The notes under the pieces were generated by a model. It was not told where the DNA came from and did no database searches. It worked only from the letters and a program-made list of their open reading frames with translations. Shown in pieces: positions 8,100 to 26,585 of a stretch of 31,432 nt of DNA; the stretch's first letter is position 1, and every line of letters starts with the position of its first letter. Origin of the DNA: Candidatus Methylomirabilis sp. Its GTDB lineage: Bacteria > Methylomirabilota > Methylomirabilia > Methylomirabilales > Methylomirabilaceae. The DNA lies in NCBI GenBank assembly GCA_041498975.1, contig JBGQJI010000011.1, positions 1-31,432 of the forward strand. Reading direction: 5' to 3'. Position numbers and translations under genes: made by a program.

Positions 8100-9095
8100 A
8101 TGGCTTGCCCAGCCCTCAGCAGTGCGGACCAGCACCGCCACAGTCACGGTTCGGTGGATCCATCGGTCCTGGATCGTGGCATCAGGGCCCTGGTGGTCTC
8201 CAGCGTGGGCCTCCTGGCGACCTTCTGCCTGCAGATCGTTGTGGTGTGGATCGGGCGAAGCGCGGCGCTCCTGGCCGACGCCATCCACAACCTGGCCGAT
8301 GTCTTCACCTCGCTCCCGATCTGGATTGCCTTTATCCTCTCTCGCCGCCAGGCAAATCGGCGCTTCACGTACGGGTACTCCCGCGCGGAGGATATTGCCG
8401 GAGTGACGGTCATCCTTTTCATCGTGGCCAGCGCCGGCTTCGCAGCCTATGCCGCGGCCCAGAAGTGGTCCAGCTAGACGGCCACCACGCACCTTGGACT
8501 GGGGATGGCGGCCGCCCTGATCGGAGCGATCGGGAATGAGCTTGTCGCCAGGTATAAGATCCGGGAAGGCAGAGCGATTGGCAGCGCGGCTCTGGTCGCC
8601 GACGGTCAACATTCCCGCGCCGACGCGCTGACCTCCGTCGGAGCCTTCCTTGGGATCCTCGGCGTGTTTCTGGGTCTAACGTGGGCGGATCCGCTCATGG
8701 CGCTGTTGATCAGTGCGGCGATCCTCTATATCGCGTGGGATGCCGGTCGGGAGGTGTTCGCCCGCATCATGGATGCCATCGAGCCGGAGACGGTGGCCGA
8801 GATCGAACGAGTCGCGGCGGCGACAAGCGGCGTGTGTCAGGTGGATGAGGTTCGAGCCCGGTGGATTGGGCATCGGATGATGATCGAGCTTGCGATCCAG
8901 GTCGCCCCGCAATTGACGGTTGCCGAGGGACACCAGATCGCCGAGGAGGTACGACACGGACTGTTCCACCACATCCCCCGGGTAGCCGACGCCCACGTGC
9001 ATGTCAATCCAGCGTGGGAGGGGGCTGATCCATACCATGGCATGACGACCCACCACGATCTGCCCTTCTCCCCACAGGGGAGAACGCAGGGATGA
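8100..9095 (+). pseudogene. Cation diffusion facilitator (FieF-like) transporter split by one in-frame TAG at 8475-8477
   Basis: ORFs 8100-8477 and 8505-9095 share a frame with 9 sense codons (TATTHLGLG) between them; joined sequence has SAALLADAIHNLAD, FTYGYSRAE, ALVADGQHSRAD and the C-terminal HVHVNP dimerisation domain. Confidence 0.85.
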
Positions 9096-17978: not shown

Positions 17979-18238
17979 GGCAGCCTCTAGGTCAGTGCTC
18001 CCGGAGCGTTGGGGTTGGCGCGCCAGCCACGAGCGTCGCTCCAGCGGCCGGCACGCCTGCTAGCAACAGACAAGGATAGGAGCGGCGACGCTTTCGGTAA
18101 CGCATCAAATCGAAGTGAAATGGAGCCGGGCATGCGAAAGCCTGAAAGGATTTGGCTGGGGGCCTATAGTGAAAATCCGAACGTCTTAGGAACGAAATCG
18201 CCGCTTTGGGAAAGGCAGCCCGCTTGAATGGAGAGGCC

Positions 18239-18261
18239 GGGTGGACCTATGAGGCCCACCC
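18239..18261 (-). terminator. Hairpin downstream of the small peptide gene
   Basis: Minus-strand RNA GGGUGGGCCU-CAU-AGGUCCACCC forms 10 bp with one G-U pair, complete only on the minus strand; no U tract. Confidence 0.5.
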
Positions 18262-18280
18262 GACTCACAGGCTCAATTAA

Positions 18281-18388
18281 TTAGCCACAGCGGGGCGATT
18301 TCATCGGCCCACAAGAAGATGACGACGGCTTCTTGCTTGACGCCGACTTCTTGACCTCCTTTTTCTTCGAGCCTGATGCTTTGGCCAT
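18281..18388 (-). CDS. 35-aa Lys/Ser-rich peptide with two C-terminal Cys (not in ORF track)
   Basis: MAKASGSKKKEVKKSASSKKPSSSSCGPMKSPRCG*; perfect SD AAGGAGGTG 6 nt before ATG; upstream promoter-like boxes; downstream hairpin. Confidence 0.75.
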   Translation of the reverse strand: MAKASGSKKKEVKKSASSKKPSSSSCGPMKSPRCG

Positions 18389-18421
18389 CTCGCATCACCT
18401 CCTTCCACCTAGATCACTCAC

Positions 18422-18451
18422 AAGTTACTTCGCCGTCGGCCGGAGCGTCAA
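18422..18451 (-). promoter_or_regulatory. Sigma70-like promoter for the small peptide
   Basis: Minus strand TTGACG, 18-nt spacer, TAACTT. Confidence 0.5.
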
Positions 18452-18569
18452 GCTGAAAATAAACACAGTTCAACGAAAATGTCGGAACTTGATCAGGACA
18501 GGGGGAGACCGGGGATAACAGCAAGGGATTCGCCAGTGGTGTCGCCCTAAAGCGCCGGACCCAGGCTTT

Positions 18570-19316
18570 CTATCTTCGCGCGTGTACCTCTGCGGCAAGC
18601 ACCCGCGGGTTCCTCGTCCGGGAATTGCGAGTTCTTCGGAGAATAGTGGCTTCACGAAAACCAACCACCCGAAACTCTTCGAGGAAGGCGCCGCCTTCCT
18701 TGGCTCCAGCAATTCAGGCAAACCAGTTGGCTTCGCTGTCCAGAATCTCTGGAGGGAGGGGTTCGTGCAAGATCAGTTCGGCCGCGTAGACTTCGCCGCC
18801 CTGCCGAACTGCTCGTGCAAGTTCGTGGAAGATTTCGTCCCTTTCTGGGTTCAGGTTAAAGATGCCATTGACCAGGGCCACGTCGATCAAGCCGTCATCA
18901 ATTGGCAGCTTTTCCGCATCTGCCTGATAGAATTCCACGTGGCCAACCCCGACCTCCGCTGCAGACTGACGGGCACGCGCAAGCATGGCTTCGCTGAAGT
19001 CCACGCCGATCACCCTGCCTCTTGGACCAACCCGTTGTGCGGCAATCAAGGAATCGAGGCCAGCTCCGCACCCCAAATCGAGGACGACGGCGCCCACCGG
19101 AATCTCTGCGAAGACGGCCACGTTAGAAACTCCAGAAAAGGCATCTACAGAGACGGGTGGCAATGCAGCGAGGAGATTCTGCGGGTAGCCCAAGCTCTCC
19201 GCCAGAGCACGCCCTACAGGAAATGGATGCGTATCCTGCGGTCTTTCCGCTGCCGCAGAATATGCCCTTCGAACGCCATCACGAAGCCGTGTTTTCTCCA
19301 TCTTCATCCACCCCAT
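18570..19316 (-). CDS. ArsM-like class I SAM-dependent methyltransferase, predicted selenoprotein (UGA at 18714-18716 read as Sec)
   Basis: VLDLGCGAGLD, GRVIGVDFS, ADAEKLP; NWFA-TGA-IAGA aligns to ArsM WxxCIAGA; frame stays open for 47 codons (IAGAKEGGAFLEEFRVVGFREATI...EVHARR) to TAG 18570-18572; SECIS-like hairpin follows. Start could be ATG 19316, 19307 or 19301. Confidence 0.88.
18682..18700 (-). promoter_or_regulatory. Bacterial SECIS-like stem-loop
   Basis: 13 nt after the UGA: AGGAAGGC-GGC-GCCUUCCU, 8-bp perfect stem with G at the start of the apical loop. Confidence 0.75.
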
Positions 19317-19478
19317 GTTCGGAACACGAGCGCGAGGGCATCTGTTGCCAGTCTCTCGGCTTAGCCGGTAGAATACAAATCCGTCAGCATTCTATCGCAT
19401 TAGCAAACTATCCGTCAAATCAATAGATATACTATAACTAATCGGTAAAACAAATATATCTTGTTCTTCAAATGGTCT

Positions 19479-19706
19479 CCCAGTGTTTTGCCGGAGTATG
19501 TCGCTTGCATCCTCTGCTCCTGGGAGATCAACATCCGGGAGGCGGTCATCCTGGGCTACGTCGGCGCCGGGGGACTCGGCCAGCAGATCCAGATTGCCAT
19601 CAGCCTCTTCCTGGAGCACCGGCTGCTCACCCTGATCATGGCGATCTACGTGATCGTGACCCTCGTGGATTACCTCAGTGCCTACCTCCGAAGCCGACTC
19701 GTCTGA
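19479..19706 (+). pseudogene. C-terminal remnant of a PhnE/PtxC-family ABC permease
   Basis: PSVLPEYVACILCSWEINIREAVILGYVGAGGLGQQI...LVDYLSAYLRSRLV*; upstream is AT-rich non-coding DNA with no N-terminal half. Confidence 0.8.
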
Positions 19707-19790
19707 GCGCTCCCCTATCCCCCTCTCGGCCCGAGGTCCAGCGGACCACGCCCTGTTGCGAGGGCACTGTTATAGTTGCAAAAATGGCCC

Positions 19791-19819
19791 TTGACAGTTC
19801 TCACGATCCACCCTAGCAT
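19791..19819 (+). promoter_or_regulatory. Sigma70-type promoter
   Basis: TTGACA (19791-19796), 17-nt spacer, TAGCAT (19814-19819); GGAGG RBS before ATG 19871. Confidence 0.65.
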
Positions 19820-19870
19820 CCTCGTACCCTCAGTGGGTGCCACGACAACCTTCAGCATGGAGGTACAGCC

Positions 19871-20634: not shown

Positions 20635-21981
20635 GTGTTCGTCAAAACCATGGAGACCACCGCTGCCGATCTAGCGCAGATGCTGGTAGATGCTCGCGCC
20701 AGAACCCTGGGGCTCGTCGGAGATCTGACCGATGAGCAACTGATCGGTCCGCGTTTGCCGATCGTGAACCCCCTGCTGTGGGAGATCGGACATCTCGCCT
20801 GGTTCCAGGAGCACTGGGTGCTGCGTCATGTTGGAGGCGAAAAGCCAACTTTGAAGGATGCCGATGGCCTGTACGACTCCGCCAGAGTGCCACACGACGA
20901 CCGCTGGTCACTGCCACTTCCTTCGCGGGCACGGACACTGCGATACATGGAGCAGGTCTTGGACCGTGTTCTCGATCGGATTGCAAGCAGGCCGTTAAAT
21001 GAAGAGCAGATCTATTTCTGCCGCTTGGTGACGTTTCACGAGGACATGCACTATGAGGCATTCGTCTATACGCGGCAAACGTTGGGGTATCCTCCTCCAC
21101 GCCTGCTGACTTCCGGTGCAGGTGAATTGTCCGCCACCGACGACCTCGCCGGACCCTGGCGAGGAGATGTGGAAATACCAGGTGGTCCCTACATGCTGGG
21201 CGGCACTCCCGATTTGCCTTTCGTGTTCGATAATGAGAAATGGGCACATCCGGTGGATATTCGTCCGTTCCGGATCGCGCAGGCGCCGGTGACCAACGGC
21301 GAGTTTGTCCAGTTCGTGGATGATCGAGGCTATGAACGACGAGACCTGTGGAGTGATGCGGGCTGGGCCTGGCGAGAGCGGGTCAACGCGAAGCATCCGG
21401 TCTACTGGCAGCCGGGCATTGGTGGAGCCTCGCTGCACCGCAGGTATGACAAATTTTTGCCGCTTGAGGAGCACTTGCCGGTGATCCATGTCAACTGGTA
21501 TGAGGCGGAGGCATACTGCCGATGGGCACATCGCCGGCTGCCGACTGAGGCCGAGTGGGAGATGGCCGCCTCTGCGGGACCGACCGCCGACGGTCAGGCG
21601 GTTCACACACAAAAACGCCTTTTCCCCTGGGGCGACGTTCCACCTGCCCCTGAACGGGCAAATCTCGACCTCGGCGTAGGGGGATGTATTCCGGTGAACC
21701 TGCTGCCGGCCGGCGATAGTGCCTTCGGCTGCCGGCAAATGATCGGCAACGTGTGGGAGTGGACGGTCAATGATTTCGACCCCTTCCCTGGCTTCGCGAT
21801 TGACCCGTACAAGGAGTACTCCGAGCCCTGGTTCGGGGGAACGCACAAGGTTCTTCGCGGTGGCGCCTTTGTCACCCGGTCTCGCCTCATCCGCAACTCC
21901 TATCGGAACTTCTACACGCCGGGCCGCCGCGATGTGCTGGCCGGTTTCCGCACCTGTAGTCTTGAAGACCAGACCAGATGA
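20635..21981 (+). CDS. senA: Selenoneine synthase SenA-like (EgtB superfamily: DinB-like plus FGE-sulfatase domains)
   Basis: VNPLLWEIGHLAWFQEHW (SenA-type rather than EgtB SPxKWHLAH), HEDMHYE completing the 3-His iron triad, FDNEKWAH, RLPTEAEWE, GNVWEW, PYKEYSEPWF, GFR. Start is GTG 20635 or ATG 20650. Confidence 0.78.
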   Translation: MFVKTMETTAADLAQMLVDARARTLGLVGDLTDEQLIGPRLPIVNPLLWEIGHLAWFQEHWVLRHVGGEKPTLKDADGLYDSARVPHDDRWSLPLPSRARTLRYMEQVLDRVLDRIASRPLNEEQIYFCRLVTFHEDMHYEAFVYTRQTLGYPPPRLLTSGAGELSATDDLAGPWRGDVEIPGGPYMLGGTPDLPFVFDNEKWAHPVDIRPFRIAQAPVTNGEFVQFVDDRGYERRDLWSDAGWAWRERVNAKHPVYWQPGIGGASLHRRYDKFLPLEEHLPVIHVNWYEAEAYCRWAHRRLPTEAEWEMAASAGPTADGQAVHTQKRLFPWGDVPPAPERANLDLGVGGCIPVNLLPAGDSAFGCRQMIGNVWEWTVNDFDPFPGFAIDPYKEYSEPWFGGTHKVLRGGAFVTRSRLIRNSYRNFYTPGRRDVLAGFRTCSLEDQTR

Positions 21982-22952
21982 CTGACACAGAACGGTATGC
22001 CAGCATTATTCTGCGGAGGGTAGAGAACGATCTGGCCCGTGACGTCCAAGAAGCGCTGACGGGCGAGTGTAAGTCGCTTCCGTGCAAATATTTTTACGAC
22101 CAGCAAGGCATGGCCCTGTTCGAGCAGATTTGTGATCTGCCGGAGTACTACCTGACTCGGGTGGAGACGGCCATTCTGAAGAACCGGGCCGATCGAATGA
22201 TCGAACTCTGCCCCTCGGACCTGGCCTTGGTCGAATTGGGCAGCGGCAGCTCTACGAAGAGCCGGTACCTGATCGAAGCGTGCCTCGGGAGACAGGAGCA
22301 ACTCATCTACTACGCGATTGACATCTCGCCGGGCGCCCTGGAGAACGGGGTTCGACAGCTCTTACAAGAATATGCGCAACTGCGGGTTGTGGGGTTGGTG
22401 GGAGAGTTTGCGGATGGGCTGAGCTATCTCGCCAACCATGCGAGTGGACCGCGGTTGGTCGCATTTCTGGGCTCCACGGTTGGCAACTTTACGGAGGCAG
22501 AGATCGCACGGTTTTTCACCATGCTTCGTCGTCACCTACGGCCCTCAGACCGGTTGCTTCTGGGGGTTGACCTGCTCAAAGATCCCTCAGTGCTCGAGGC
22601 CGCCTACGACGATTCCCAGGGTATCACTGCAGAGTTCAACCTAAATATCCTCGCCCGTCTTAATCGGGAGCTAGCTGCGGACTTCGATCTGGAAGCATTT
22701 CGGCATCGCGCGCTCTTCAACCGCGAGCGCAGCCGTATTGAGATGCACTTGGTCAGCTTGCGCAACCAGCGCGTAAGGATCAAGGCTCTGGGACTAGACA
22801 TCGATCTCCGTGAGGGTGAGGCCGTCCATACGGAGAACTGCTATAAGTATTCCGAGGATGGAATGAAGTCGCTGCTGGCATCCCACGGGTTCCAGGTCCT
22901 ACGCCGTTTCACTGACCCCCACGACCAGTTTTGCCTTTTCCTAGCCTCCTGA
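21978..22952 (+). CDS. egtD: L-histidine N-alpha-trimethyltransferase (hercynine synthase)
   Basis: LPCKYFYD, LPEYYLTRVE, ELGSGSSTK, FLGSTVGNF, AYDDSQGITAEFNLN, RIEMHL, HTENCYKY; ATGA overlap with senA. Confidence 0.95.
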   Translation: MTDTERYASIILRRVENDLARDVQEALTGECKSLPCKYFYDQQGMALFEQICDLPEYYLTRVETAILKNRADRMIELCPSDLALVELGSGSSTKSRYLIEACLGRQEQLIYYAIDISPGALENGVRQLLQEYAQLRVVGLVGEFADGLSYLANHASGPRLVAFLGSTVGNFTEAEIARFFTMLRRHLRPSDRLLLGVDLLKDPSVLEAAYDDSQGITAEFNLNILARLNRELAADFDLEAFRHRALFNRERSRIEMHLVSLRNQRVRIKALGLDIDLREGEAVHTENCYKYSEDGMKSLLASHGFQVLRRFTDPHDQFCLFLAS

Positions 22953-23048
22953 TCGGCCCGACCCGGGATGCTCCAGGTGCCCTCAACAAACCAACCATGA
23001 ACGAGTTGCCCGCCGCAGAACTACTCAAGTGCCCTAGCTTACCTCACA

Positions 23049-23801
23049 ATGCCAGCGTCGATTGAATTTGATCGCGTCTCTTACCGGCTTTCCGGCGGCG
23101 TCGCGGTCCTTGACGATGTGAGCTTCACCGTCGAGGGCGGCGAGGTGCTCGTGCTCGTCGGCCGGAGCGGCGTCGGCAAGACGACCGTTCTTCGGTTGAT
23201 CAATCGCCTCTTGGTACCCAGCGCTGGCGAGGTGCGGGTCGAGGGCCGCGCGACCACGGAGTGGGATCCGATCGCGTTGCGCCGGCGAATCGGCTATGTG
23301 CTCCAGGAGGTGGGGTTGTTCCCACACATGACTATCGGCCGCAACATCGCGGTCGTTCCCCGCCTGGAAGGATGGCCGGAGGACCGCATCCGCGCGCGTT
23401 GTGTCGAACTTCTCGAGCTTGTCGGACTCGACCCCGTAAGGTTTGAAGGTCGATTTCCCCACGAACTCTCAGGAGGTCAACGCCAACGTGTAGGATTTGC
23501 ACGGGCGCTTGCCGCCGACCCGCCGGTGGTCTTGATGGACGAACCGTTCGGTGCGCTGGATCCTCTCACCCGGTCTGAAATCCACCGGGAGTTTCATCGT
23601 ATTCAAGAGCGGGTCCGCAAGACGGTCGTGATGGTGACCCACGACATGGGTGAAGCCTTTGCACTCGCGACCAGAATGGGCGTCCTGGCTGAGGGTCACC
23701 TCGTGGCGCTCGACACCCCGGATGCAATCGCCAGGGCCAGCGATCCGATGGTCCGAATGTTCCTCGACGCGCTCCCGCCTGTGCCCGGACACGTTCGATG
23801 A
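23049..23801 (+). CDS. ABC ATP-binding subunit, OpuA/ProV (EgtV-like) family
   Basis: GRSGVGKTT, LRRRIGYVLQEVGLFPHMT, LSGGQRQRVG, LMDEPFGALDP. Confidence 0.92.
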   Translation: MPASIEFDRVSYRLSGGVAVLDDVSFTVEGGEVLVLVGRSGVGKTTVLRLINRLLVPSAGEVRVEGRATTEWDPIALRRRIGYVLQEVGLFPHMTIGRNIAVVPRLEGWPEDRIRARCVELLELVGLDPVRFEGRFPHELSGGQRQRVGFARALAADPPVVLMDEPFGALDPLTRSEIHREFHRIQERVRKTVVMVTHDMGEAFALATRMGVLAEGHLVALDTPDAIARASDPMVRMFLDALPPVPGHVR

Positions 23802-25336
23802 ACCTCATTGACTTCTGGCTCTCACATCGCGCCGAGATGCTGGGCGCGCTCTCTCAGCATGTCGTCCTTACGCTGGTGGCCACCGCCACGGCCATTGCGA
23901 TGGGCGTGCCGCTCGGGATCGTGGCAGCCCGACGGCCCCGGCTGGGCACGGCGCTGCTGGCCTTTGCCAACATCTTCCAGACAGTCCCCAGCCTGGCCAT
24001 GTTCGGGTTTCTGGTGGCCGTCCCGCTCATCGGAGGCGTCGGCGCACGAAGCGCCCTCATCGTTCTGATTCTCTATGCATTGCTTCCGGTCATGCGCAAC
24101 ACCGTCGCCGGCATCCAGGGCGTCGATCGGGCTGCCCGCGAGGCAGGTGTCGCCATGGGCATGACGGCGCGACAGTTGTTGCTCCAGGTGGAGCTTCCGC
24201 TGGCGACGCCCACGATTGTCGCCGGCGTGCGCGTCGCGGCAGTCATCGGAGTGGGAGCGGCCACGATTGCCGCCGCAATCGGTGCCGGAGGGCTGGGCGA
24301 CTATATCTTCCGGGGTCTCTCGATGACCGACCCGACCGTGATCCTCGCCGGCGCGGTCCCGGCGGCGCTCCTCGCGCTTGCGGTTGACGCGGCCCTCGGC
24401 TGGCTCGAGCGCGCCCTGACGCCAGGAGTCGCAAGGCGCCGGCGCGTGACCTTCCGGGTGGTGGCGGCCATCGCCATGACGCTTACGGTGATCGTGGCCG
24501 GCGCCTTCGCCCTGTCAGGACGCTGGGGGACGCGCGTCATCATCGGGTCGAAGAACTTCACGGAGCAGGTCATTCTCGGGGAGCTCCTGGCGCAAGTGGT
24601 CGAGCGGACGACCGAGCTTCGCGTCGATCGCCGCTTGAATCTCGGAGGGACATTCATCTGCGAGGAGGCGCTGCGCGCGGGCGCCATCGACGCCTACGTC
24701 GAGTACACCGGAACAGCGCTTACGGCGATCTTCCACCAGCCGGTGGCCAGGGATCGCGAGCAGGTGTATGCGCGCGTCGCCGCCGCGTACGCCGCGACTG
24801 GCCGCGCTGTACTGCCCCCACTCGGCTTCAACAATACGTTTGCGATTCTGATACGGGCCGCCGACGCGAGGCGGCTGCAGCTCAAGACCATCAGCGACGC
24901 GGCGGCGTACACGCCGAAGTGGAAGGCGGCATTCGGGTACGAGTTCCTCGAGCGCGAAGATGGCTACAAAGGGCTGTCGCAGACGTATCGCTTGCGTTTC
25001 GCCGAGCCCCCTCGCGTGATGGATCTGACGCTGAGCTACCGCGCGCTTGCCAGCGGCGCGGTCGATCTGATCGCCGGTGATGCGACGAATGGGCTCATCA
25101 AGGGACTCGATCTCTTCATGCTGGAAGACGATCGGCGCTATTTCCCGCCCTACGACGCGATTCCCGTCGTGCGGACTCAGACATTAGCGGCACACCCTGA
25201 GCTTCGGACGGCCATCGAGCGGGTAACCGGGCGAATCTCGGAGGAGACGATGCGCCAGATGAATTACGAGGTGGATGTCCGGCACCGCGACGCGGCGGCC
25301 GTCGTCCGCGAGTTCCTCGACAAGTTAGGATCATGA
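23798..25336 (+). CDS. Fused permease and substrate-binding protein, glycine-betaine/ergothioneine (EgtU/OpuBD-like) ABC transporter
   Basis: QTVPSLAMFG, EAA-loop-like EAGVAMGMT, GAGGLG; SBP with GSKNFTEQ, YVEYTGT, GFNNTF, REDGY, FPPY; ATGA overlap with the ATPase. Confidence 0.92.
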   Translation: MNLIDFWLSHRAEMLGALSQHVVLTLVATATAIAMGVPLGIVAARRPRLGTALLAFANIFQTVPSLAMFGFLVAVPLIGGVGARSALIVLILYALLPVMRNTVAGIQGVDRAAREAGVAMGMTARQLLLQVELPLATPTIVAGVRVAAVIGVGAATIAAAIGAGGLGDYIFRGLSMTDPTVILAGAVPAALLALAVDAALGWLERALTPGVARRRRVTFRVVAAIAMTLTVIVAGAFALSGRWGTRVIIGSKNFTEQVILGELLAQVVERTTELRVDRRLNLGGTFICEEALRAGAIDAYVEYTGTALTAIFHQPVARDREQVYARVAAAYAATGRAVLPPLGFNNTFAILIRAADARRLQLKTISDAAAYTPKWKAAFGYEFLEREDGYKGLSQTYRLRFAEPPRVMDLTLSYRALASGAVDLIAGDATNGLIKGLDLFMLEDDRRYFPPYDAIPVVRTQTLAAHPELRTAIERVTGRISEETMRQMNYEVDVRHRDAAAVVREFLDKLGS

Positions 25337-25377
25337 TCGCCGAGCGAATCTTCAACGCATCCTTCACATTTTGGGTG

Positions 25378-25430
25378 TGTAGGGGCGCTGCTTGCTGCGC
25401 CCTGTCCACAGGACCAGCCCTGCCCCTACA
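25378..25430. repeat. GTAG-family REP-like inverted repeat
   Basis: TGTAGGGGC...GCCCCTACA termini with inner GGGCGC...GCGCCC hairpin. Confidence 0.7.
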
Positions 25431-25481
25431 TTCCCGATCGTCATGCCAGATTCCCCGCTGTGGTGGGATGTGGGTTGGCGC

Positions 25482-26585
25482 GTGATCGAGGCACACACCG
25501 ACGTGGTCGGCAGCCTCCTCCGGCCCCCCGAACTCCTGGAGGCGCAACGGAAACTCTCCCATGCCGAGATCACGCCAGCCGAGTTCAGACGGATCGAGGA
25601 TCGCGCCGTGGACGAGGCGTTACGACTACAGGAAGAGGCCGGTCTCGATGTTGTGACCGACGGAGAGATGCGCCGGCTCTCCTTCCAGAGCCAGATGACA
25701 GCAGCCGTCGAGGGCTTCAGCGAGTGGGACCTCAACGCCTTCCTGTGGGGAAGGTGGCAGAGCGATGAGCTCGGGGAGATGGTGGTCGAGCGGCCGCCGA
25801 TCACCGTCGTGAGCAAGCTTCGCCGCAAGCGCTTCCTCTCAGCCGAAGAGTTCACCTATGCGGGCGGCCGAACAGCCAGGGTGTTAAAGGTGACGCTGCC
25901 GAGCCCGAGCCTATTTGCCAACTTCTGGGACTCCCGTCGCTCAAGCGGAGCGTACGTGCGCCTGGACGATTTCCTCGGGGACGCGGCAGAGATCCTCCGC
26001 GAAGAGGTCGAAGAGCTCGTGCGGCTCGGCGCGACCTACATCCAGCTCGACGCGCCGCAGTACCCGCTCCTCATGAACCCACGCTACCGGAGCTTTTACG
26101 AGAGCCGTGGCTGGCCGGCCGATCGCTGGCTCGAACTCGGACTCGAACTCGACAATCGCGTGATCGGCAACCACCCGCACGTGACCTTCGGCTTTCACCT
26201 CTGCCGCGGGAACCAGGCAAGCCGCTGGCTCGTGGCTGGCGGCTATGATTGGCTGGCTCCGCGCATCTTTCCCAGAATCCGCGCGCAACGGCTCCTCCTA
26301 GAGTACGACGATCGCCGTTCCGGGACATTCGAGCCGCTTGCCGCAGTCCCCGAAGACAAAATGGTCGTTCTCGGCCTCGTGACGACGAAGACGCCCCGGC
26401 GGGAGACAGTCGAGGAGCTGGTGGGACGCATCCGGGAGGCGAGTGTCCTGGTCCCGCTGGAGCGACTCGCGCTCTCCCCGCAGTGCGGCTTCGCCAGCTC
26501 CGTGATCGGGAACGCGATCTCCGTAGAAGACCAGCGGGCCAAGCTCAGGACAATCGTCGAGACGGCGGCGGCGGTCTGGGTATGA
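25482..26585 (+). CDS. Cobalamin-independent methionine synthase II (MetE C-terminal-domain-only) family protein
   Basis: GTG 25482; VVGSLLRP, VVTDGEMRR, YIQLDAP, Zn ligands HLCRGN, LEYD and SPQCGFAS. Confidence 0.9.
   Translation: MIEAHTDVVGSLLRPPELLEAQRKLSHAEITPAEFRRIEDRAVDEALRLQEEAGLDVVTDGEMRRLSFQSQMTAAVEGFSEWDLNAFLWGRWQSDELGEMVVERPPITVVSKLRRKRFLSAEEFTYAGGRTARVLKVTLPSPSLFANFWDSRRSSGAYVRLDDFLGDAAEILREEVEELVRLGATYIQLDAPQYPLLMNPRYRSFYESRGWPADRWLELGLELDNRVIGNHPHVTFGFHLCRGNQASRWLVAGGYDWLAPRIFPRIRAQRLLLEYDDRRSGTFEPLAAVPEDKMVVLGLVTTKTPRRETVEELVGRIREASVLVPLERLALSPQCGFASSVIGNAISVEDQRAKLRTIVETAAAVWV

Follow-up and report, generated by a model that had tools for sequence, protein, structure and literature searches.

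A Probable ArsM-like Selenoprotein of Candidatus Methylomirabilis and Its Selenocysteine-Dominated Clade

Introduction

Does a methyltransferase gene of Candidatus Methylomirabilis sp. end at the TGA codon where its annotated-style reading frame closes, or is that codon read as selenocysteine (Sec) within a longer protein? The gene lies in a stretch of 31,432 nucleotides (nt) of contig JBGQJI010000011.1 (assembly GCA_041498975.1), referred to here as the window; coordinates are positions in this window unless another locus is named. A mechanical list of open reading frames (ORFs) places a minus-strand ORF of 200 amino acids at 18714..19316, with the C-terminal sequence ...SEANWFA. An earlier reading of the DNA letters alone, called here the original prediction, proposed that this ORF is the front part of a hidden selenoprotein resembling ArsM, the arsenite methyltransferase.

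The explanation that best accounts for the evidence, to which we assign a probability of about 0.85, is an ArsM-like methyltransferase whose TGA is recoded to Sec; that this single Sec holds the substrate by one tether is a more tentative part of it. Comparative sequence evidence makes it very probable that the gene encodes a real selenoprotein in which TGA is recoded to Sec. The codon is conserved across the relatives examined, the frame behind it is constrained, a hairpin of the expected type stands beside it, and homologues with Cys at the same site exist. What such an enzyme would methylate is a more tentative matter, which is taken up once the decoding, the fold and the family have been described.

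A Conserved Reading Frame Continues Past the TGA Codon

Read through the TGA, the complete gene spans 18570..19316 on the minus strand and comprises 248 codons plus a TAG stop, counted from the ATG at 19316. Its single in-frame TGA is codon 201 (18714..18716, minus), designated U201, which aligns with Cys224 of ArsM. The tail of 47 codons that follows (18573..18713, minus), translated with TGA as U, reads IAGAKEGGAFLEEFRVVGFREATILRRTRNSRTRNPRVLAAEVHARR; it begins with IAGAKEGG, ends in ...AEVHARR and runs to the TAG at 18572-18570. The original prediction had described exactly these coordinates, with a stop at NWFA followed by IAGA and 47 open codons that complete the fold, and the read-through product of 248 amino acids with U at position 201 bears them out. 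The true start is likely the third ATG, at 19301 (M6), from which a product of 243 amino acids would be made; this start is the likelier one because homologues begin with MDK or MNRDK at M4-M6 and because GGGGTGG sits 6 nt upstream of ATG 19301.

Protein databases contain this family mostly in its short form. A search of 5.8 billion proteins scored 8000 candidates, of which 3533 are relatives at E <= 1e-10. Among the best 120 listed, 114 span approximately 77-81% of the query, which means that they end at the TGA, and six span 96-99%. Fourteen of the 120 were aligned, all six long forms included. Two long forms, P0006 and P0009, carry Cys at the Sec site (DWFACISGAKE...) and continue with the same conserved tail. 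Three others (P0033, P0074 and P0077), known here from their protein sequences, carry Trp, and P0110 shows a local divergence resembling a frameshifted assembly. The residues printed at the Sec site are W in these three proteins and in the fragment P0189, G in P0123 and P0171, and R in P0126. W and G are most simply what gene callers using TGA-sense code tables would print, and the Arg of P0126 could be encoded by a real CGA codon.

At the DNA level, a genome scan limited to one genome per species gave 260 pattern matches and 205 relatives, of which the best 80 were kept as loci L001-L080. They come from 78 metagenome-assembled genomes (MAGs), as L003 and L004 share one MAG and L021 and L023 another; each of these two MAGs holds two selenoprotein gene copies on separate contigs. 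Fourteen phylum labels are represented (one of them "unassigned"), led by Acidobacteriota (31 loci) and Chloroflexota (14), and the nearest of the 80 kept loci is L001, from a Candidatus Methylomirabilota MAG, at 92% identity. The aligned codon is TGA in 80/80 of these best loci. In 75 it was established by a first pattern; the other five show the stop symbol in tblastn and are TGA by a second pattern, which recovered 77. Past the TGA, 47 codons are open in 78/80 loci, and in 69/78 a stop stands directly after codon 248.

The tail is also constrained at the protein level. Against the window gene, its median proportions of synonymous (pS) and nonsynonymous (pN) differences are 0.72 and 0.20, a ratio of 0.27, and body codons 140-186 give 0.72, 0.20 and 0.29; in these uncorrected proportions tail and body are indistinguishable. 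The homologues thus look as the original prediction had expected them to, with TGA (80/80 loci) or Cys (P0006 and P0009) at the site and a conserved sequence (pN/pS 0.27) downstream.

Two loci show individual departures in this region. L001 (6687-6761) is without approximately 19 codons of the conserved tail (...REATVYARR, then the stop); strand 222-229 and the RNARTKNP loop would be lost with them, through either a deletion in frame or an assembly fault. In L065 (10592-10603), a Nitrospirota orthologue, the site reads U-V-C-G, the sole possible UxC pair among the 80 loci.

A SECIS-Type Hairpin Beside the Codon

The RNA 3' of the TGA reads AUUGCUGGAGCCA and then forms a stem, AGGAAGGC/GCCUUCCU, of 8 base pairs (bp) closed by the loop GGC and starting 13 nt after the TGA. 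This hairpin, of the type of a bacterial selenocysteine insertion sequence (SECIS), occupies 18682..18700 on the minus strand (5' arm 18700-18693, loop 18692-18690, 3' arm 18689-18682) and encodes K206-L212. The 8-bp hairpin with a G-led loop that had been predicted 13 nt downstream is therefore present, as a GGC triloop. Folded alone, it reaches -12.3 kcal/mol (z = -3.1), and 0/200 shuffles are as stable. The bacterial SECIS model, as outlined in an excerpt of a recent survey, has a loop of 3-9 nt, a stem of 4-16 bp, a G in the first two loop bases, a UGA-loop distance of 16-37 nt and a minimum free energy <= -7.5 kcal/mol (PMC13188914). The window hairpin lies within all of these bounds, with a 3-nt loop (GGC) that opens with G-G, an 8-bp stem, a distance of 21 nt from the UGA and the stability given above.

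Comparative support comes from 81 ungapped sequences, namely the 80 loci and the window; these rows are related, and the covariation and binomial numbers below are not strict probabilities. The RNAalifold consensus consists of a 6-bp core that pairs columns 17-22 with 30-35. A lower stem predicted in the 67-nt context after the TGA is absent from this consensus and was rejected. The 8-bp structure has 93.2% of 648 cells paired, compared with 48.8-65.9% in controls with the 3' arm shifted by 1-3 columns, and changes on both sides occur at 4/8 pairs (8 cells). Among 500 shuffles, the real value is reached by none for the covariation score, by one for the percentage paired and by six for the doubly changed pairs. 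Some compensations alter the protein: L039 has GAU...AUC, which changes E to D and F to I, and wherever column 22 is A (Gly to Ser; three sequences), column 30 is U.

Codon 210 provides a test that is independent of the amino-acid sequence because the site is synonymous. Its third base, which pairs with the first base of codon 208, is a pyrimidine in all 81 sequences, with 72/72 Ala codons (65 GCC, 7 GCT) among them. Elsewhere in these genes, 1661/3113 Ala codons (53%) end in a pyrimidine, and Ala205, just outside the stem, shows an ordinary spread of 44 C, 17 G, 12 A and 8 T. A naive binomial for codon 210 gives 2e-20, a value that ignores relatedness, though synonymous sites are near saturation. 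Together, these comparisons show a hairpin within the coding sequence that, as judged from its conservation, acts as the SECIS recoding UGA 201.

An ArsM-like Fold with One Active-Site Chalcogen

An AlphaFold2 model built on a 51-row alignment (A4) has a mean predicted local distance difference test (pLDDT) of 96.2 and a predicted template modeling score of 0.92. Residues 201-248 are modeled at pLDDT 95-99 as a helix (208-217) and two strands (222-229 and 239-247), so that the tail belongs to the methyltransferase core sheet, as the original prediction had supposed. The 12 best Foldseek matches in the PDB are all ArsM or human AS3MT (template modeling scores 0.61-0.72, 22-26% identity), and the closest solved relatives by HMMER are 5EVJ (7.7e-17) and the 4FR0/4KW7/5EG5 set (approximately 6e-15). 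The model shows the predicted protein as a class-I S-adenosylmethionine (SAM) methyltransferase of ArsM-like fold.

The HMMER alignment places the catalytic cysteines of the solved ArsM chains on the window protein. Query G62-V63-S64-N65 pairs with G-C72-G-S/N, the Cys72 column being fixed by 5EG5, in which the C72A mutant chain differs from the wild type exactly there. Query N150-G151-I-F-N-L pairs with N-C174-V-x-N-L, and U201-I-A-G-A pairs with C224-L-G/A-G-A. Codon V63 (19128..19130, minus) is therefore found at the Cys72 position, where GCGN becomes GVSN, and codon G151 (18864..18866, minus) at the Cys174 position, where SNCVIN becomes VNGIFN; N150 and G151 are invariant in alignment A4. 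The N-terminal Cys region of ArsM has no Cys pair here and holds the motif HPFPVG instead. The sole Cys of the protein, C83, belongs to the SAM-binding glycine-rich loop LDLGCGAG. These alignments show U201 as the apparent only chalcogen of the active site, and, by homology with ArsM, it would face the methyl of bound SAM. Loss of the first two ArsM cysteines and Sec at the third, as foreseen from the letters, is hence what V63, G151 and U201 represent.

Alternative Readings of the Codon

If the TGA were a true stop, the gene would specify a truncated or decaying methyltransferase of 200 amino acids and the downstream frame would be open by chance. Public gene callers side with this view, 114 of the best 120 listed proteins ending at the site, and TGA is the commonest stop in the window (13/21 other genes). 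Nonetheless, the same codon is TGA in 80/80 species-level genomes under 14 phylum labels (one "unassigned"), which is not expected of a nonsense mutation. Purifying selection acts on the tail as it does on the body, two strands and one helix of the modeled core sheet (pLDDT 95-99) come from the tail, and the hairpin is under RNA-level constraint, all of which leaves a true stop most improbable. Scarcely to be credited, too, is insertion of a standard amino acid, Trp or Gly, at the TGA under an alternative code or by a suppressor tRNA. Trp in P0033, P0074, P0077 and P0189 and Gly in P0123 and P0171 would fit such decoding, but these residues are explained most simply as gene-caller output under a TGA-sense table. 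Ordinary termination at TGA is seen in 13 of the 21 other recognizable genes of the window, and in four of these the TGA lies in an ATGA/GTGA overlap with the gene that follows. An alternative genetic code can accordingly be set aside. The carrier phyla use the standard code, the site aligns with a catalytic Cys for which true Cys forms exist, and a SECIS-type hairpin is conserved beside the codon. Extensions past the stops of the same 21 genes, inspected by eye, include none that is coding-like, so no other hidden selenoprotein was seen in the window.

Recoding to Sec, the preferred reading, has several observations weighing against it. No Sec machinery was seen in the 31-kb window, which contains no tRNA and no selA/B/D-like Pfam match, a point that also favors a true stop, and none of the eight tRNAs in the 80 loci is a tRNA-Sec. 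Rfam gives no match in the window at gathering thresholds; around the site at E <= 10, it gives four chance-level matches only, to microRNA, small nucleolar RNA and long non-coding RNA families. In the 67-nt context after the TGA, folding is not unusual (z = -0.81, 41/200 shuffles as stable). The top stem pair (columns 24/28) is unpaired in 29/81 sequences, so that the real loop is often 5-7 nt. Finally, the stem-encoded KEGGAFL is conserved in the Cys forms too, which means that part of the nucleotide conservation is at the protein level. Set beside the constant codon, the constrained tail, the hairpin and the Cys homologues, these points leave the proposal of a hidden selenoprotein standing.

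A Sec-Dominated Clade Outside Canonical ArsM

Family models recognize the protein only in general terms. Pfam reports generic SAM methyltransferase domains alone. The best NCBIfam models are all of ArsM type, and all scores fall under the cut-offs (in bits/cut-off, NF041537 191.8/510, NF047649 181.1/460, NF008823 168.1/263 and NF041536 160.8/575); matches to NF041537, NF047649 and NF041536 are confined to the methyltransferase part of the profiles. NF008823 accepts the three-Cys proteins P0172 (303 bits) and P0211 (319) and rejects the single-Cys forms (125-215).

The wider family was searched exhaustively with HMMER in 1.84 billion cluster representatives, with 274 matches at E <= 1e-30 and 4699 at <= 1e-10. 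The best 150 representatives of 50%-identity clusters were classified by pairwise alignment at the Cys72, Cys174 and Cys224 positions. Cys is present at all three in 39 representatives and at the third alone in 27. Another 42 (38 + 4) have no Cys at the covered positions and end <=3 residues from the site, which makes them probable Sec forms; the site is not covered in 34, and eight have other residues there. None of the three-Cys representatives among these 150 is truncated at the site. Cys is missing from both of the first two positions in 99 of the best 150, counting rows that cover both, and it is found in 0/51 rows of alignment A4.

The 122 rows used for a tree (LG+G4 model, quick search, rooted at the midpoint) are 105/150 representatives, the window, 14 of 42 read-through loci, P0006 and P0009; the 45/150 representatives left out fail to cover residues 45-195 or the site. 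The window falls in a 38-row clade (SH-aLRT 100) made up of 33 Sec or truncated rows, three Cys rows and two others, with P0006 and P0009 nested inside the Sec forms. All 37 three-Cys rows form one other clade (support 94). These placements show what, in sequence terms, is a widespread Sec-dominated clade in which Cys72, Cys174 and the N-terminal Cys region are replaced by V63, G151 and HPFPVG and only the Cys224 position is kept, as Sec. They support the view that the window protein is probably not a canonical ArsM. Because the V63/G151/U201 pattern is common to a large clade, it is a family trait and not an oddity of this gene. The original prediction had singled out the residue pattern and its context as the noteworthy part; the pattern is real but shared by a large clade of Sec and Cys forms rather than peculiar to the gene.

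Substrate and Mechanism

ArsM chelates As(III) through two or three thiolates, those of Cys174 and Cys224 with help from Cys72, and so holds it facing the SAM methyl. Inorganic arsenite (iAs(III)) binds three Cys, monomethylarsenite (MAs(III)) two and dimethylarsenite (DMAs(III)) one (PMC3877260). With a single selenolate, the substrate of the window protein would be held by one Se-X bond only. It may then be a soft atom that needs one tether, for example a chalcogen (selenide, sulfide or tellurium, in an Se-Se, Se-S or Se-Te linkage) or an already substituted metalloid such as dimethylarsenite. SAM would methylate the atom in place, and attack of a thiol or reductant on the Se-X bond would release the product. 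Sec in preference to Cys would offer a fully ionized, strongly nucleophilic and readily re-reduced tether, and the proposal would explain the near-universal Sec of the clade because such a tether is needed. The general one-tether scheme is tentative, with the odds somewhat against it. A further extension, speculative and rather unlikely as a whole, is that the clade may constitute a large, unrecognized class of Sec-dominated enzymes in many soil and groundwater phyla, with a single-selenolate ArsM scaffold methylating one-bond substrates that canonical ArsM cannot handle, whether chalcogenides, perchalcogenides or mono-valent organometalloids, dimethylarsenite among them.

Genome neighborhoods and domain fusions bear on this chemistry. 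Within +/-8 kb of the gene, 3240 ORFs from the 80 loci and the window were clustered all-against-all. The recurrent neighbors are RND pumps (13 loci of 80), sigma-54 response regulators (9), ATP-binding cassette (ABC) ATPases (8), LysR regulators (7), CDF transporters adjoining the gene (7), MerR regulators (6), HlyD-type proteins (6) and an HMA P-type ATPase (5). Their metal-efflux flavor is weak and could stem from shared ancestry; the largest upstream ORF per locus, scanned with Pfam in the 80 loci, is heterogeneous. Fused forms occur among Cys-type relatives in which the first two ArsM cysteines are likewise absent: with a NifS-like cysteine desulfurase in P0143, an ArsR helix-turn-helix domain in P0144, MerC in P0178, a DsbA/thioredoxin-like domain in P0248, AhpD/CMD and a second methyltransferase in P0121, and DUF2652 in P0229. 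Such partners suggest that members of the wider family may work on sulfur/selenium or on soft metals.

Three of these results count against the one-tether scheme. No conserved partner gene exceeds 13 loci, and the only two clusters above that number are antisense shadows of the gene itself; the fusions occur in distant Cys-type relatives outside the clade of the window protein; and a search for longer proteins (13 at E <= 1e-20) finds no credible fused form within that clade. The best longer match, P0271 (662 amino acids), is a frame-shifted spurious ORF and was rejected. The other longer matches are more distant and comprise seven radical-SAM fusions and one each with OsmC, low-molecular-weight phosphatase, PF18978 and methyltransferase domains only.

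The protein could also be a selenoprotein and yet an ordinary ArsM, in which Sec together with glutathione or other ligands replaces the missing cysteines. ArsM needs both Cys72 and Cys174 for As(III) methylation, and their equivalents are V and G throughout the clade, which is separate from the three-Cys clade. The score on NF008823 is 168 against a cut-off of 263, and no ars operon genes are among the recurrent neighbors of the 80 loci. What speaks for an ordinary ArsM is that ArsM accounts for all of the nearest solved structures and best named families, that metal-efflux or MerR genes lie near some loci, and that "Arsenite methyltransferase" with Sec in UxxG already appears as a selenoprotein family in excerpts of two surveys (PMC13188914; PMC2398784). 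On balance, an ordinary ArsM is quite unlikely, which agrees with the original prediction that this is probably no standard multi-thiol As(III) methylase. Very unlikely is a covalent relay, the methyl-selenide relay that the original prediction had offered as a possibility, in which SAM would methylate the selenolate and the methyl would pass to a second substrate. A selenolate is an excellent nucleophile toward SAM, and such a scheme would need just one nucleophile beside the methyl. However, no result of the analysis speaks for it, or for selenoneine or ergothioneine as substrates. Unless activated further, a selenoether donates its methyl poorly, and ArsM-family enzymes pass the methyl directly to the bound substrate. 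Direct methylation of a singly tethered substrate thus stays the preferred, if tentative, scheme.

Genomic Setting of the Window Gene

The gene is divergent from a plus-strand block at 20635-26585 that starts with an EgtB-like gene (DinB_2 + FGE-sulfatase; 20635-21981) and an EgtD-like histidine methyltransferase gene (21978-22952), the two overlapping by 4 nt, and continues with an OpuA-type ABC ATPase, a fused permease/binding protein and a MetE-like gene. A role of the block in ergothioneine synthesis and transport is plausible. The opposite flank of the gene has a beta-carbonic anhydrase and a LysR regulator. When eight window proteins were compared with the 80 loci by tblastn, EgtB and EgtD appeared only in L001 (1/80), approximately 4.3 kb away behind a phosphonate-type ABC transporter. 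The EgtB/EgtD link was rejected as a functional clue, present as it is near the gene in 1/80 loci, and with no neighbor conserved, the idea that the context is informative about function did not hold up.

The gene may stand alone under its own promoter, outside the neighboring ergothioneine cluster. A sigma-70-like promoter match, TTGACG-18-TAGAAT (10/12, a consensus match only), lies at 19389..19418 on the minus strand, approximately 70-85 nt upstream of the start codons; the region searched has four promoter matches where shuffles give an expected 0.6, and the upstream spacer is low in GC (0.43 over 19300-19499). A terminator-like hairpin at 18683-18668 is not significant (one site, 2.0 expected) and was set aside. 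Approximately 590 nt (17979-18569) separate the stop of the selenoprotein gene from the carbonic anhydrase gene, and this interval has no ORF with a family match.

One gene remnant and one split gene are also seen in the window. Within the spacer 19317-19870, a low-GC (0.43) plus-strand ORF of 81 amino acids (19461-19706) is a C-terminal remnant of a PhnE-type ABC permease, with 44% identity to residues 268-338 of the L001 permease and a match to BPD_transp_1 positions 104-182 of 184. In L001, L062 and L073, an intact phosphonate-type binding protein stands divergently upstream of the methyltransferase, and the transporter therefore seems to have been lost in the window. At 8100-8477 and 8505-9095, both on the plus strand, a CDF cation-efflux gene is split in two frames, covering positions 1-92 of the Cation_efflux profile and then 108-198 plus ZT_dimer; it is either a frameshifted pseudogene or an assembly error.

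Implications

The family is systematically truncated in public databases, and the named entries among the best 120 are called "methyltransferase domain-containing protein" by NCBI. In many lineages from soil, peat and groundwater, the clade thus hides a selenoprotein and with it a sign that Sec is decoded. If the clade is indeed a large class of Sec-dominated enzymes, Sec decoding would be much commoner in Acidobacteriota, Chloroflexota, Planctomycetota and Methylomirabilota than annotation shows. Surveys that count "arsM" as a proxy for arsenic methylation may include the clade or silently drop it.

A single-chalcogen ArsM scaffold that almost always carries Sec contrasts with the counts for this family in the Global Ocean Sampling (GOS) marine survey, which have approximately 30 times as many Cys as Sec forms (PMC2398784). 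On sequence grounds, near-universal Sec points to a chemistry in which selenium would be indispensable and to a substrate other than inorganic arsenite. Were one-bond substrates to prove correct, the clade would provide a new route for volatilizing selenium, tellurium or arsenic.

Comparison with Known Systems

The canonical ArsM and AS3MT enzymes (CmArsM 4FR0/4FSD/6CX6, CrArsM 5EVJ and human AS3MT 8XT7) share with the window protein the fold, the SAM-binding motifs and the CxxGA active-site turn. They differ in that Cys72, Cys174 and Cys224 correspond to V63, G151 and Sec, and that HPFPVG takes the place of the N-terminal Cys pair. Compared with the algal and human enzymes, the window protein is also shorter (248 amino acids) and without their C-terminal domain.

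ArsM-like selenoproteins were already known, as the original prediction stated, and the published ones share the UxxG Sec motif (PMC13188914, in excerpt). Lists of selenoprotein families have included "Arsenite (S-adenosyl)methyltransferase" since 2007-2008, with eight Sec and 245 Cys sequences in GOS (PMC2398784). In excerpts of two reviews, which cite Fomenko et al. 2007, the arsenite methyltransferase selenoprotein counts as experimentally verified, its motif being UxxG and its exemplar WP_011987699.1 (PMC13188914, PMC9312934). The window protein has the same single Sec in U-x-x-G as this PRK11873/NF008823-type family, here U-I-A-G, at the position of AS3MT Cys206 and CmArsM Cys224. It differs from the family in its score (168 against a cut-off of 263), in the loss of the other ArsM cysteines and in its separate Sec-dominated clade; the comparison is with the family model.

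Multi-Sec relatives form a further group. Three multi-Sec ArsM-like families with Sec in UxxG are attributed to Haft & Tolstoy 2025 in the same excerpt (PMC13188914). NF041537 (ArsM/AhpD), NF047649 (methyltransferase/UXPK-star) and NF041536 (ArsM/DUF2284) are among the best-scoring NCBIfam models and share Sec in UxxG, but the window protein has no second domain, second Sec or UXPK tail, and its scores are far under their cut-offs. The single-Cys ArsM-like proteins P0169, P0205, P0133 and P0245 resemble it in having no Cys at the first two positions and Cys at the third (SFAGVGN / SNGVI / CIGGA), and they reach 183-215 bits on NF008823. In alignment A4, the single-Cys forms P0133, P0149, P0169, P0205, P0222 and P0245 show 31-38% identity to the window protein. 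They have Cys for Sec and an N-terminal FHF where the window protein has HPF, and some are fused to NifS-like, ArsR, MerC, DsbA-like or AhpD-like domains.

Literature searches on ArsM with selenium methylation and on AS3MT with selenocysteine, which did not extend to the supplementary tables of surveys, found no single-Cys or single-Sec ArsM clade, and passages of BSepDB (PMC13326102), PMC1976440 and PMC2375036 offered nothing on the subject either. Named members of the published families could share the residue pattern described here, and the position of the Sec is already known. What appears to be new is the loss of every other ArsM cysteine, the separate Sec-dominated clade and the failure of all curated cut-offs.

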